Positions 49,246-58,182 are shown, numbered from the stretch's first letter. The stretch is DNA of 64,000 bases from an uncultured Acidobacteriota bacterium (GCA_963793695.1 CAWCBB010000025.1:6357-70356); one strand, 5' to 3'. The notes: generated by a model from the sequence alone, not told the origin. Translations and numbers: made by a program.

Positions 49246-52200
49246 ATGAGCGTCGAACGACCACGCGAAAAGAACTCCCCTGAAACCAAGGCACGATCGA
49301 AACAACCCGTCGACGACGCGGCCGGATCGGACCGTATCGATCCGCGCGAGTTGCTGCGGGTCCTCGTCGCGGTCCGGAAGGGCGATTTCTCCGCGCGGAT
49401 GCGGGGAGACCAGATCGGCCTCGCCGGCAAGATCGCGGACACGATGAACGAGATCATCGAGCAGAACGAGCGCCTGAGCGCCGAGCTCGAGCGGATCAGC
49501 GACGCCGTCGGCAAGGAAGGGCGCCTCACCCAGCGCGCCTCCCTCTCGGGAGCCACGGGCGCATGGCGCGGCTCGATGGAAGCGGTCAACTCGCTGATCG
49601 GCGACCTCGTCCAGCCCACCGTCGAGGTCTCCCGCGTCATCACGGCCGTCGCACGCGGCGATCTGTCGGCCGCGATGTCGCTCGAGCTCGAAGGGCGCGC
49701 GCTCAAGGGAGAGTTCCTCCGGACGGCGACGACCGTCAACACGATGGTCGACCAGCTCCGCTCCTTCTCCTCGGAGGTCACGCGCGTCGCGCGCGAGGTC
49801 GGCACCGAAGGAAAGCTCGGCGGCCAGGCTCAGGTCAAGGGCGTCGCCGGCACGTGGAAGGACCTGACCGAGTCGGTCAACTCCATGGCCTCCAATCTGA
49901 CGAATCAGGTCCGCAACATCGCGCAGGTCACGACCGCGGTCGCGAAGGGAGACCTCTCGAGGAAGGTGACGGTCGACGTCAAGGGGGAGATCCTCGAGCT
50001 CAAGAACACGATCAACACGATGGTCGACCAGCTCCGCTCGTTCGCCTCGGAGGTCACCCGCGTCGCGCGCGAGGTCGGCACCGAAGGAAAGCTCGGCGGC
50101 CAGGCCGACGTGGCCGGCGTCGACGGAACGTGGCGAGACCTCACCGAGAGCGTCAACTTCATGGCCGCGAACCTGACGGGTCAGGTGCGGAACATCGCGG
50201 CGGTGACGAAGGCCGTCGCGGGGGGCGATCTCTCGAAGACGATCACGGTCGAAGCCGAAGGCGAGATCGCGGAGCTGAAGGAGACCATCAACACGATGGT
50301 CGACCAGCTCAACTCGTTCGCGTCCGAAGTCACGCGCGTCGCGCGCGAGGTCGGCAGCGAAGGGAAGCTCGGCGGCCAGGCCGAGGTCAAGGGCGTCGGC
50401 GGCACGTGGAAGGACCTGACCGACTCGGTCAACTTCATGGCCTCGAACCTCACCGGCCAGGTCCGCAACATCGCGGACGTCACGACGGCCGTCGCGAACG
50501 GCGATCTCTCGAAGAAGATCACCGTCGAGGTCGAGGGGGAGATCCTCGAGCTCAAGATCACGATCAACACGATGGTCGATCAGCTGCGCGCGTTCGCGGC
50601 GGAAGTCACGCGCGTCGCCCGCGAAGTCGGCACCGAGGGGAAGCTCGGCGGCCAGGCCAACGTCGAGGGCGTCGGCGGCACGTGGAAGGACCTCACCGAC
50701 AGCGTCAACAACATGGCGTCGAACCTGACCGGCAGGTCCGCAACATCGCGGACGTCACGACCGCCGTCGCGAAGGGCGACCTCTCGAAGAAGATCACGGT
50801 CGACGTCCGCGGCGAGATCCTCGAGCTCAAGAACACGATCAACACGATGGTCGACCAGCTCTCGCTCGTTCGCGTCGGAGGTCACGCGCGTCGCGCGCGA
50901 GGTCGGCACCGAAGGGAAGCTCGGCGGCCAGGCGGACGTGCAAGGGCGTCGGCGGCACGTGGAAGGACCTGACCGACGCGTCAACTCGATGGCCTCGAAC
51001 CTGACGGGCCAGGTGCGCAACATCGCGGACGTCACCACGGCGGTCGCGACCGGCGACCTCTCGAAGAAGATCACGGTCGAGGTGCGCGGCGAGATCCTCG
51101 AGCTCAAGGACACGATCAACACGATGGTCGACCAGCTCTCCTCGTTCGCCTCCGAGGTCACGCGCGTCGCGCGCGAGGTCGGCACCGAAGGGAAGCTCGG
51201 CGGCCAGGCGGAGGTCAAGGGCGTCGCCGGCACGTGGAAGGACCTGACCGACTCGGTCAACTCGATGGCCTCGAACCTGACGGGCCAGGTGCGCAACATC
51301 GCGGACGTCACGACGGCGGTCGCGACCGGCGACCTCTCGAGGAAGATCACGGTCGAGGTCGCGCGGCGAGATCCTCGAGCTCAAGAACACGATCAACACG
51401 ATGGTCGATCAGCTCTCCTCGTTCGCCTCCGAGGTCACGCGCGTCGCGCGCGAGGTCGGCACCGAAGGGAAGCTCGGCGGCCAGGCCGAGGTCAAAGGCG
51501 TCGCCGGCACGTGGCGCGACCTCACCGAGACCGTCAATTCGATGGCCTCGAACCTGACGGCCCAGGTGCGCACGATCGCGGACGTCACGACGGCGGTCGC
51601 GAACGGCGACCTCTCGAGGAAGATCACGGTCGAGGCGCGCGGCGAGATCCTCGAGCTCAAGAACACGATCAACACGATGGTCGACCAGCTCTCCTCGTTC
51701 GCGGCCGAGGTCACGCGCGTCGCGCGCGAGGTCGGCACCGAAGGGAAGCTCGGCGGCCAGGCCGAGGTGCAGGGCGTCGCCGGCACGTGGAAGGACCTCA
51801 CCGACAACGTCAACCTCATGGCGCGCAACCTCACCGACCAGGTGCGCGGAATCGCGACCGTCGTCACGGCGGTCGCGAACGGCGACCTCCGCAGGAAGCT
51901 CACCCTCGAAGCGCAGGGGGAGATCGCGCAGCTCGTCGAGACGATCAACGACATGATCGACACGCTCGCGACCTTCGCCGATCAGGTCACCACGGTCGCC
52001 CGCGAGGTCGGCGTCGAGGGCCGCCTCGGCGGCCAGGCCGCGTCCCCGGCGCCGCCGGCACGTGGCGGGACCTGACCGACAACGTCAACCAGCTCGCCGC
52101 GAACCTCACCACCCAGGTCCGCGCGATCGCCGACGTCGCGACCGCCGTCACCAAGGGCGACCTCACGCAGAGCATCGCGGTCGAGGCCAGCGGCGAGGTC

Positions 52201-56602: not shown

Positions 56603-58182
56603 ATGAGCCAGTGAAAGTCCTGCTGGTCGACGACCAGCCGAACAATCTCGTCGCGCTCGAAGCGATGCTCGAGGACGTGGCCGTGCAGTGCGTGCGCGCG
56701 GAATCGGGAACGCAGGCGCTCAAACGGCTGCTCGATCACGATTTCGCCGTGATCCTGCTCGACGTCCAGATGCCCGACATCGACGGATTCGAGACGGCGA
56801 ACCTCATCCGGCAGCGGGAGAAGTCCCGCCACACTCCGATCATCTTCGTGACCGCGATGTCGCGCAACGAGACGAGCCTCTTCAAGGGCTATTCGGTCGG
56901 CGCGGTCGACTACCTTTTCAAACCGATCGTTCCGGAGATCCTCAAGTCGAAGGTCCAGGTCTTCGTCGATCTCTTCCGGAAGAACCAGAAGCTCGAGCGG
57001 CAGACCTCCGAGCTCTCGCGCCTGAGCCGGCAGAACGAGCTGATCCTCAACTCCGCGGCCGATGGCGTCATCGGCGTCGCGCTCGACGGCACGGTGACCT
57101 TCGTCAACCCGTCGGCCTCGCGCATGATCGGCCGGACCGCGGGGAGGCTCGTGGGCGTCGACCTGCACGCGATGCTCCACCCCGCCGGGACCGAAAACCT
57201 CGGCGCGCGCGATCATTGCCGGCTCCATACGGCCCTGAGCGGGGAACCGACCCGGGAGCTCCGGGACGACGTCTTCTTCCGGTTCGACCTGACCTCGTTC
57301 CCCGCGGAGTACAGCGCCACGCCGATGCTCGACGACGAGGGAGAGCACGTCGGGACGGTCCTCACGTTCCGCGATGTGACCGAACGCCGCGCCGCGGCGA
57401 TGGCGAAGGAGAACGAGCGCCGCTACCAGGAGGCCGAGGCCGCGAGCAAGGCGAAGGATGACTTCCTCGCCACGCTCTCCCACGAGCTGCGCACTCCGAT
57501 GACCGCGATCCTCGGGTGGAACGAGGTCCTCTCCCTCGACGACATCGACGCCGAGACACGAAAAGAGGCGGTCGAGGCGATCCGAAGCAGTGCCAACGCC
57601 CAGAAGCAGCTCATCGACGACATGCTCGACGTCTCCCGCATCATCATGGGGAAATTCTCGATCGACCTCAAACCGAAGTCCCTTCGCGAGGTGGTCCAGC
57701 TCGCGCTCGAAACGATCCGCCATCAGGCGGAAGAGAAACAGGTCGGGCTCGAGGCCGACCTCGATGCGACGCCCATTCAGGTCCTCTCCGACCCCACGCG
57801 TCTCCGCCAGGTGTTCTGGAACCTGCTGACGAACGCCTTGAAGTTCACCGAGCCGGGCGGGAAGATCGCCGTGCGCCTGACCGCCGAGGGACGGACCGCG
57901 CGCGTCTCGATCGTCGATACCGGGAGCGGGATCGATCCTGAGACGCTTCCTCACGTCTTCGACCGGCTCGTGCAGAGCGACGGAGGGAAAGGCAAAGGAG
58001 GCCTGGGACTCGGTCTCGCGATCGCGAGCCACATCGTCGAGCTGCACGGCGGGGCGATCGAGGCGACGAGCGAAGGGGAAGGGCGGGGGGCGGAGTTCCG
58101 CGTCCTCCTCCCCATCTGGAGCGAGCCGGCCCCGGAGGACTCCGCGGCCGAAAGCCGCTCGGAGAGCCGCGCCGACGACTGA
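56599..58182 (+). CDS. REC-PAS-HisKA-HATPase histidine kinase
   Basis: The GTG start overlaps the cheB stop (GTGA). VKVLLVDDQPNNL...ILLDVQMPDIDG...YLFKP; PAS (ILNSAADGVIGVALDGTVTFVNP); SHELRTPMTAI; NLLTNALKFT...DTGSGI...GLGLGLAI. Intact 527 aa. Confidence 0.9.
   Translation: MNEPVKVLLVDDQPNNLVALEAMLEDVAVQCVRAESGTQALKRLLDHDFAVILLDVQMPDIDGFETANLIRQREKSRHTPIIFVTAMSRNETSLFKGYSVGAVDYLFKPIVPEILKSKVQVFVDLFRKNQKLERQTSELSRLSRQNELILNSAADGVIGVALDGTVTFVNPSASRMIGRTAGRLVGVDLHAMLHPAGTENLGARDHCRLHTALSGEPTRELRDDVFFRFDLTSFPAEYSATPMLDDEGEHVGTVLTFRDVTERRAAAMAKENERRYQEAEAASKAKDDFLATLSHELRTPMTAILGWNEVLSLDDIDAETRKEAVEAIRSSANAQKQLIDDMLDVSRIIMGKFSIDLKPKSLREVVQLALETIRHQAEEKQVGLEADLDATPIQVLSDPTRLRQVFWNLLTNALKFTEPGGKIAVRLTAEGRTARVSIVDTGSGIDPETLPHVFDRLVQSDGGKGKGGLGLGLAIASHIVELHGGAIEATSEGEGRGAEFRVLLPIWSEPAPEDSAAESRSESRADD

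Follow-up and report, generated by a model that had tools for sequence, protein, structure and literature searches.

A poly-HAMP hybrid kinase operon with its own CheR and CheB in an uncultured acidobacterium: a candidate methyl-accepting coiled-coil system

The DNA analysed here (the window) is a stretch of 64,000 nucleotides on contig C25 of the metagenome-assembled genome (MAG) of an uncultured Acidobacteriota bacterium (GCA_963793695.1, CAWCBB010000025.1:6357-70356), which was placed in Thermoanaerobaculia judging by its nearest relatives. Positions 49246-58182 of its plus strand hold four genes, which by their Pfam domains encode a giant hybrid histidine kinase (HK), a CheR-type methyltransferase, a CheB methylesterase with no receiver (REC) domain, and a second kinase of the type REC-PAS-HK. 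Consecutive genes overlap: the kinase stop and the CheR start share an ATGA at 55156-55159, as read directly from the sequence; the CheB ATG at 55976 lies upstream of the CheR stop codon (TGA, 56008-56010); and CheB and REC-PAS-HK meet in a GTGA at 56599-56602. CheR and CheB are translationally coupled in this operon, and only the exact start of CheB is uncertain, as ATG 55976 implies an overlap of 35 nt with CheR, yet the orthologous genes overlap by 4 nt. The initial annotation had described these four genes as linked; the domain order and the three junctions were confirmed, while the frames of the kinase and of CheR were found to be broken, requiring about 40 and six single-base corrections, respectively.

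The giant kinase (49246-55159, plus strand, as are all features of the operon; stop TGA at 55157-55159) is soluble and comprises approximately 1965-1970 codons once it is read through. Pfam matches (HAMP and HAMP_2, GAF, HisKA, HATPase_c and pieces of Response_reg) and the orthologue alignment give the domain order poly-HAMP array, GAF, E/Q-rich coil, HisKA, HATPase_c and three REC domains. Tandem Repeats Finder identified a 276-bp tandem array at 49736-52224 (9.0 copies, 85% matches), each unit of which codes for a 92-residue di-HAMP module; further HAMP domains flank the nine units, which form the core of an input array of some 20 HAMPs. The GAF domain lies at approximately 52326-52740, is crossed by frameshifts, and was recognised through a GAF_2 match in the open reading frame (ORF) 52062-52739; in the orthologue of the relative G010, GAF_2 occupies residues 1622-1758. 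It is followed by a coiled coil of about 110 residues that leads to the H-box (52745-53081, from the read-through translation and the heptad layout), the proposed methyl-accepting segment. The kinase core, HisKA and HATPase_c, was located by Pfam and extends from the H-box SHELRTP at 53082 to about 53800, and the three REC domains occupy approximately 53950-55156, in broken frames, with Response_reg matches in the ORF pieces 53954-54937 and 54658-55818; the intact G010 orthologue likewise has three REC stretches. The N-terminus from 49246 aligns well with the orthologue in G016. A start further upstream, through a frameshift-joined ORF at 48911-49249, was hinted at by global alignments and was rejected, as the upstream 'similarity' to G010 consisted of low-complexity wrong-frame translations and G016 had no match there.

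The remaining genes are smaller. CheR (55156-56010), whose start overlaps the kinase stop, has the Pfam CheR_N domain and the S-adenosylmethionine (SAM)-binding CheR domain, and CheB (55976-56602, 208 codons, frame intact) consists of the catalytic domain only, with a complete CheB_methylest match (1-174/174, E 2e-54). The last gene (56599-58182, 527 aa, frame intact), the GTG start of which overlaps the CheB stop, encodes REC-PAS-HisKA-HATPase_c and is 64% identical to its G010 orthologue over the full length, with no frameshift.

The first annotation had given the kinase about 1970 codons, which do not form one open frame: the ORF that begins at 49246 ends at 52311, and it already holds out-of-frame stretches. 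A phase plot of G+C content at third codon positions (GC3) showed repeated frame switches between approximately 50700 and 55970, and a single frame in 49246-50700 and in 55970-58182, the latter in agreement with the clean frames of CheB and REC-PAS-HK. About 40 insertions and deletions (indels) disrupt the kinase between 50732 and 55069. Our own implementation of a frameshift-aware protein-to-DNA alignment, run against five intact orthologues, required 40-44 frame corrections in the kinase, mostly for one extra base, and six +1 corrections in CheR (near 55366, 55688, 55713, 55738, 55796 and 55896), on which all five orthologues agreed.

One possible explanation for these frameshifts is that they are real, in which case the kinase and CheR would be pseudogenes and CheB and REC-PAS-HK their surviving remnants; the approximately 46 frame breaks do cluster within 50.7-55.9 kb, and the genes on either side are clean. 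Against this explanation, the corrected kinase and CheR contained no in-frame stops when compared to G010 or G002, and identity to G010 did not drop (83% where the sequence is clean, 71-90% where indels are dense). GC3 remained at about 0.9-1.0 within each local frame, and the frame changes were almost all single-base insertions or deletions unaccompanied by substitutions. Similar damage was observed outside the operon: the essential gene alaS is broken up by frame changes into 10 pieces, about 10% of all 5-kb bins have at least 12 phase switches (median, 6), and the assembly consists of 30 contigs yet reaches only 68% marker completeness. Given the matching damage to alaS and the undamaged operon of five relatives, we attribute the frameshifts in the kinase and CheR to errors in the assembly consensus rather than to decay, and regard true pseudogenes as highly improbable.

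Short-read data point in the same direction. In short-read contigs of relatives about 93% identical, a single base was missing or added at 52602, 52695, 53219, 53610-53612, 54389, 55070 and 55797, and these sites coincide with places where frameshifts had been predicted; one such contig of 5,999 nt spans 53228-56100 with 54 gaps. These contigs come from relatives (approximately 88-95% identical) and not from this strain, and the search of sequencing runs yielded no run with more than 16% of the sampled words and no reads of the window's own strain, a result which leaves some room for genuine decay. For this reason the case for assembly error is strong but indirect. As a practical consequence, the MAG should be regarded as containing patchy indel errors, and apparent 'pseudogenes' in it call for caution. 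Another indel-broken gene is present in the window itself, an EAL-domain gene at 43648-44632 which is split over two frames (43648-45480 and 44003-44632).

The operon was found intact and translationally coupled in five relatives (G010, G016, G017, G020 and G002); in G010 its products are of 2553, 290, 206 and 528 aa. As the flanking genes differ among the relatives, the conserved unit consists of the four genes themselves. Two flanking features were considered as additional members and discarded, the upstream EAL gene and a divergent pair encoding a 155-aa protein and a STAS protein, neither of which is kept beyond the nearest relatives.

The coil between GAF and the H-box is exceptionally well conserved. 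The two core positions of its heptads are occupied by leucine and by N, Q or A, respectively, and the heptads display repeated EE or QE pairs (AEEL, QQEEL, SEELL, QQEEL, SNEEL). Over 30 sequences from several phyla the mean column identity of the coil was 85%, with invariant exposed E and Q residues, as compared to 65% for CheR from the same genomes. One position switches between E and Q across species (QQEEL versus QQQEL), as happens at the methylation sites of methyl-accepting chemotaxis proteins (MCPs) and at sites of deamidation, and comparison with the sites of Escherichia coli Tar, read from the genome, placed an EE pair at equivalent heptad positions.

To describe the distribution of this motif, EEL-x3-NEEL was searched for as a DNA pattern in 101 Acidobacteriota genomes, 35 of which contained it; a reversed-pattern control gave a single match. 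From the 100 genomes other than that of the window, 45 motif clusters were taken, leaving out the unpublished genome G077 and a DNA repeat family in G116; no conclusion draws on G077 or on G024, a second unpublished genome. CheR was encoded within 7 kb of 31 of these 45 clusters, and of 23 out of the 25 clusters with at least two motif copies. Among the 31 CheR-linked clusters, 23 had a fused CheB-CheR just upstream of the coil, and seven were kinase-CheR-CheB operons of the type described here. Within the genome to which the window belongs, EEL-x2-[STAQ]-NEEL is limited to two loci, this kinase and a coil which follows a fused CheB-CheR on contig C30 (593000-597200; positions 3991-8157 of the extracted locus L019). 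The C30 gene encodes CheB-CheR and an EEL-x3-NEEL coil, then PAS_10-GAF-HisKA, and appears as two ORFs (3991-6414 and 6484-8157 of L019), probably because of an indel error. The G116 family is an identical A/G-rich string of 29 nt that matches the motif on 12 contigs (e.g., C14:17315 and C31:39407), and looks like a dispersed DNA repeat rather than a coding coil.

A search of genome contigs with the alignment of the GAF-to-H-box coil returned 80 loci, in Thermoanaerobaculia, Myxococcaceae, Anaeromyxobacteraceae, Polyangiaceae, Obscuribacterales, Sericytochromatia, Gemmataceae, Riflebacteria and others. At the 69 loci that could be evaluated, i.e., those with at least 5 kb of sequence downstream, CheR was found on the same strand approximately 2.8 kb downstream in 54 cases and CheB in 50, whereas neither CheW nor an MCP was encoded within 10 kb of any of the 80. 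The gene order, the co-occurrence of which the initial annotation had proposed to assess, is conserved among relatives and across several phyla. Two further loci, L104 (G092:C23:447078) and L105 (G062:C12:48634), encode kinases of about 1,970-1,990 aa with a related coil SQQEELRQTNEEL; no CheR or CheB was found within 7 kb of either, and G062 had no CheR match genome-wide. Coil-bearing kinases thus exist without the enzymes, and AskB of Myxococcus xanthus may be alike.

Coils of this kind have been anticipated. MAC1 and MAC2 (methyl-accepting coiled-coil) proteins were predicted by Wuichet and Zhulin in 2010, according to the MiST 3.0 paper (PMC6943060) and bioRxiv 10.1101/2022.05.07.491037. 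In MAC1 the CheB and CheR domains are built in, in MAC2 separate CheR and CheB proteins are associated, and MiST3 contains profiles for both (PMC6943060); the MiST 4.0 paper makes no mention of MAC. By architecture, the operon and fusion classes of our survey correspond to MAC2 and MAC1, respectively. As in MAC2, a Glu/Gln-rich coil lies here upstream of a histidine kinase core, CheR and CheB are encoded by genes of their own, and the cluster contains neither CheA nor CheW nor an MCP; the fused form (CheB-CheR-coil-PAS-GAF-HK) is that on contig C30 of the same genome.

Both enzymes look catalytically competent, as far as sequence alignment can indicate: the CheR motifs MFRD, GCSTGEE, ATDIN and CRNVMIYF align with E. 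coli CheR, and equivalents of Ser164, His190 and Asp286 are present in CheB when aligned to the E. coli protein. They are nevertheless remote from the canonical enzymes, with scores far below the NCBIfam cut-offs. The G010 orthologue of CheR matched Pfam CheR and CheR_N and scored 96 bits against the 435-bit cut-off of the equivalog NF007902; CheB scored 150 and 148 bits against cut-offs of 293 and 342 (NF001965 and NF009206). In a CheR tree, 18 operon-type CheRs, including that of the window, formed one split with a support of 99 in the SH-like approximate likelihood ratio test (SH-aLRT), and 16 fusion-type CheRs a second (support 81). Together, the two groups were set apart from all MCP-linked CheRs with a support of 97 and a branch length of 0.89.

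The association of these enzymes with a kinase raises the question of their substrate, for which the initial annotation had put forward the kinase itself, in view of the lack of MCP, CheA and CheW nearby. Contig C25 contains no MCPsignal or CheW match, which upholds the latter point, and the arrangement by which the chemosensory classes F, ACF and Tfp are recognised, with CheA, CheW and an MCP encoded together with CheR and CheB, is absent from the locus. An alternative interpretation is that CheR and CheB are a spare adaptation pair for ordinary chemoreceptors and that their position in the operon reflects co-regulation only. The genome does encode potential substrates: four MCPsignal genes are present, together with a complete che cluster on contig C8 (CheA, MCP, CheW, CheR and REC-CheB) and a second on C1, and at the Pfam level the CheR and CheB of the operon are members of the chemotaxis enzyme families. 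The survey for other che genes that had been suggested as a check thus did reveal complete clusters, but each of them has its own CheR and CheB, and the pair in the operon is therefore surplus to the chemosensory systems. The same genome has a lone frameshifted CheR on C9 (107500-108500; L020:6536-7510), among transporter genes (SBF, TauE/DUF1634), with no coil, kinase or che gene near it.

Several further results are difficult to reconcile with a spare pair. G056, a 99%-complete genome, has no MCPsignal and no CheW match, and its single CheR sits in an operon of this type (GAF-coil-HK-REC3, CheR, CheB and REC-HK); G054 (91% complete), likewise without MCPsignal and CheW matches, gives the same picture with the fused type. 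Because of this lack, the substrate in these two genomes is not a chemoreceptor. The separate CheR clade, the score of 96 bits against 435, and the absence of MCP and CheW near all 80 related loci argue in the same direction, and a chemotaxis role was ruled out for CheR3/CheB3 of Pseudomonas putida, as cited in PMC4951495. Taken together, these data make a spare chemotaxis pair quite improbable. Action of the enzymes on their neighbouring kinase, on the other hand, was supported by every comparative test that was run, with a correction as to the site.

CheR and CheB are likely to act on the E/Q-rich coil that joins GAF to the H-box, and not on the poly-HAMP array. The array is absent from some members, among them the G056 operon, and is therefore dispensable for the association with CheR and CheB; it is a variable input module rather than a conserved partner of the enzymes. 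Another scenario is that CheR and CheB act within the operon but off the coil, on REC-PAS-HK or on a receiver, the coil serving as a signalling helix or docking site. In keeping with this scenario, a REC-containing fourth gene is also conserved, and the strict chemoreceptor site consensus, which was tried on the coil and not used as strong evidence, is matched only partially, small residues at +3 and +4 being only partly present. On the other hand, the fourth gene varies (REC-PAS-HK here, REC-HK in G056, REC with a C-terminal part of no recognised kind in M. xanthus) while the coil is nearly invariant, and the PAS-to-HisKA linker of REC-PAS-HK has no EEL heptads. Moreover, besides the enzymes and the kinase core, the EEL coil is the sole element common to the MAC1 and MAC2 architectures, and the methylated element of a comparable kinase, RsbK of Bacillus cereus, is placed on its S-helix in PMC4574943, which cites its earlier work. 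A target other than the coil is accordingly considered unlikely.

RsbK has the architecture CHASE3-HAMP-GAF-S-helix-HK-CA-REC, and the purified CheR-type enzyme RsbM was reported to methylate it in vitro with 14C-SAM (PMC4574943). The same source cites 127 RsbK-like kinases in 10 phyla, and describes RsbM as having no partner esterase and the output of RsbK as sigma-B, through RsbY. The likeness to the present locus, drawn here at the level of architecture, lies in a hybrid kinase composed of GAF, signalling helix, HK and REC beside a CheR-type methyltransferase. RsbK differs in being a membrane protein with a CHASE3-HAMP input and one REC, as opposed to a soluble array of about 20 HAMPs and three RECs, and RsbM in the lack of a methylesterase; here a REC-less CheB, which would make the mark reversible, and REC-PAS-HK are added.

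A counterpart is found in M. xanthus, at a locus (L095) where the gene for a 2010-aa poly-HAMP-GAF-HK-REC3 kinase is followed by genes for CheR, for CheB without REC, and for a REC protein. L095 was assigned to MXAN_0712-MXAN_0714 on the basis of architecture and gene sizes rather than accession. MXAN_0712 is AskA, a member of an ambruticin-responsive kinase set with a part in ambruticin-responsive development (PMC7643160), and is also HskS, for which poly-HAMP crystal structures exist and a class of kinase-type poly-HAMP proteins has been described (bioRxiv 10.64898/2026.02.18.704330); in the kinase of the window, as in that class, an array of alternating di-HAMPs precedes GAF, DHp/CA and REC. 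MXAN_0713 (CheRb) and MXAN_0714 (the REC-less CheBa) are listed as 'orphans' in PMC3945109, and a text search of the Ask (PMC7643160) and HskS (10.64898/2026.02.18.704330) papers gave no mention of CheR or CheB. The gene order and the architecture poly-HAMP-GAF-coil-HK-REC3 are the same as here, the L095 coil is 69% identical to that of G010, and the two CheRs fall in the same clade; the M. xanthus fourth gene differs in having no recognised kinase domain. A further kinase-CheR-CheB locus, L080, nearly identical to that of M. xanthus, is found in a record labelled 'Comamonas sp. KCTC 72670' (BNCN01000008.1), and the two CheRs are sister tips with branch lengths of 0.016 and 0.067; the record is probably mislabelled, contaminated or truly a Myxococcus genome.

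The cfcABCDE genes of P. putida encode a CHASE3/GAF hybrid kinase (CfcA), CheR3 (CfcB), CheB3 (CfcC) and the REC-containing CfcD (PMC4951495). Compared by description only, this operon resembles the present one in beginning with a GAF-containing hybrid kinase that is followed by CheR, CheB and a REC protein, and differs in the CHASE3 input of CfcA and in its signalling to the diguanylate cyclase CfcR, as no GGDEF partner is evident here. With the Tar/CheR/CheB system of E. coli the locus shares the enzyme folds and catalytic residues and, in the proposed substrate, EE/QE pairs at equivalent heptad positions. Unlike that system, it has no MCP signalling domain, CheA or CheW, its CheB has no regulatory REC, and the coil is presumably a parallel two-helix dimer running into DHp rather than an antiparallel four-helix bundle. 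The arrangement has thus already been described as a class (MAC2, RsbK/RsbM, cfc, AskA), and the locus offers nothing of a new type.

In the mechanism we propose, the soluble hybrid kinase would sense through its poly-HAMP array and GAF domain, and the signal would pass along the parallel dimeric coil of some 110 residues into the DHp/CA core, a path suggested by the architecture, which is itself observed. The three C-terminal RECs and the downstream REC-PAS-HK would form a phosphorelay. The CheR of the operon would methylate glutamates of the conserved EE/QE heptads in the coil, a step for which RsbM and RsbK provide an in vitro precedent, and the REC-less CheB would demethylate them and may also deamidate glutamines. 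Methylation would then reset the output of the kinase, as the adaptation enzymes reset chemoreceptors.

A number of observations weigh against this mechanism, in addition to the partial consensus match noted above. The methylation of this kinase and of its close relatives is something we infer from sequence comparisons, and the four MCPs encoded by the genome make cross-talk of the enzymes possible. Among the 69 evaluable loci, 12 had no CheR within 10 kb, including Obscuribacterales loci and a second type of paralogue, and in G004 the coil kinase lies approximately 21 kb from the CheR-CheB-HK genes; the coil thus also exists without an adjacent enzyme. In P. putida, the crinkle phenotype persists when other cfc genes are mutated, according to unpublished results that the authors mention in PMC4951495. 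With these points taken into account, we consider it probable that the four genes form a functional operon of the MAC2 class in which CheR and CheB act on the coil of the kinase. That the AskA/HskS-type poly-HAMP kinases, including this one, are true methyl-accepting proteins, with EE/QE pairs in the coil that a dedicated lineage of CheRs methylates and a REC-less CheB demethylates, is a broader proposal to which we give an even chance.

Other features of the window lie outside the conserved module. The divergent pair upstream of the kinase (minus strand, 48408-49305) consists of an ORF of 155 aa that belongs to no known family (48838-49305) and a STAS protein of the anti-sigma-antagonist type (48408-48776); it does not belong to the module, being retained in just the nearest relatives, G010 and two more. 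The pair is reminiscent of the output by partner switching that RsbK and the Hsb system of P. putida use. Directly downstream of the operon are a single-domain receiver gene (58272-58700, minus strand) and a CHASE-HisKA-HATPase-REC hybrid kinase (approximately 58770-60977, plus strand), in a region dense in two-component genes. The first 8 kb of the window (1-8000) have a G+C content of 54-57%, as compared to 66-70% in the rest, and the shift coincides with a tRNA gene (7923-7995, minus strand); this segment may be a foreign island integrated at the tRNA.

Reversible methylation of glutamates is the textbook memory device of chemotaxis receptors. Operons of the MAC type suggest that ordinary two-component kinases can use such a memory as well, a possibility whose experimental support comes from B. 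cereus RsbK/RsbM only, a system with no demethylase. The case is sharpened here by the motif-first survey of 100 Acidobacteriota genomes, by the genomes with a kinase-linked CheR and no MCP or CheW, and by the separate CheR clade. It also connects two literatures which do not cite each other, one on the M. xanthus AskA/HskS kinase and one on the 'orphan' CheR and CheB encoded beside it; because the kinase adjoins these genes, M. xanthus lends itself to experiments on the methylation of a kinase. If the proposal is true, these operons would encode a two-component phosphorelay with chemoreceptor-style adaptation that needs no CheA, CheW or MCP, and the Ask system of M. xanthus, which responds to ambruticin, would include CheRb and CheBa as components so far overlooked.

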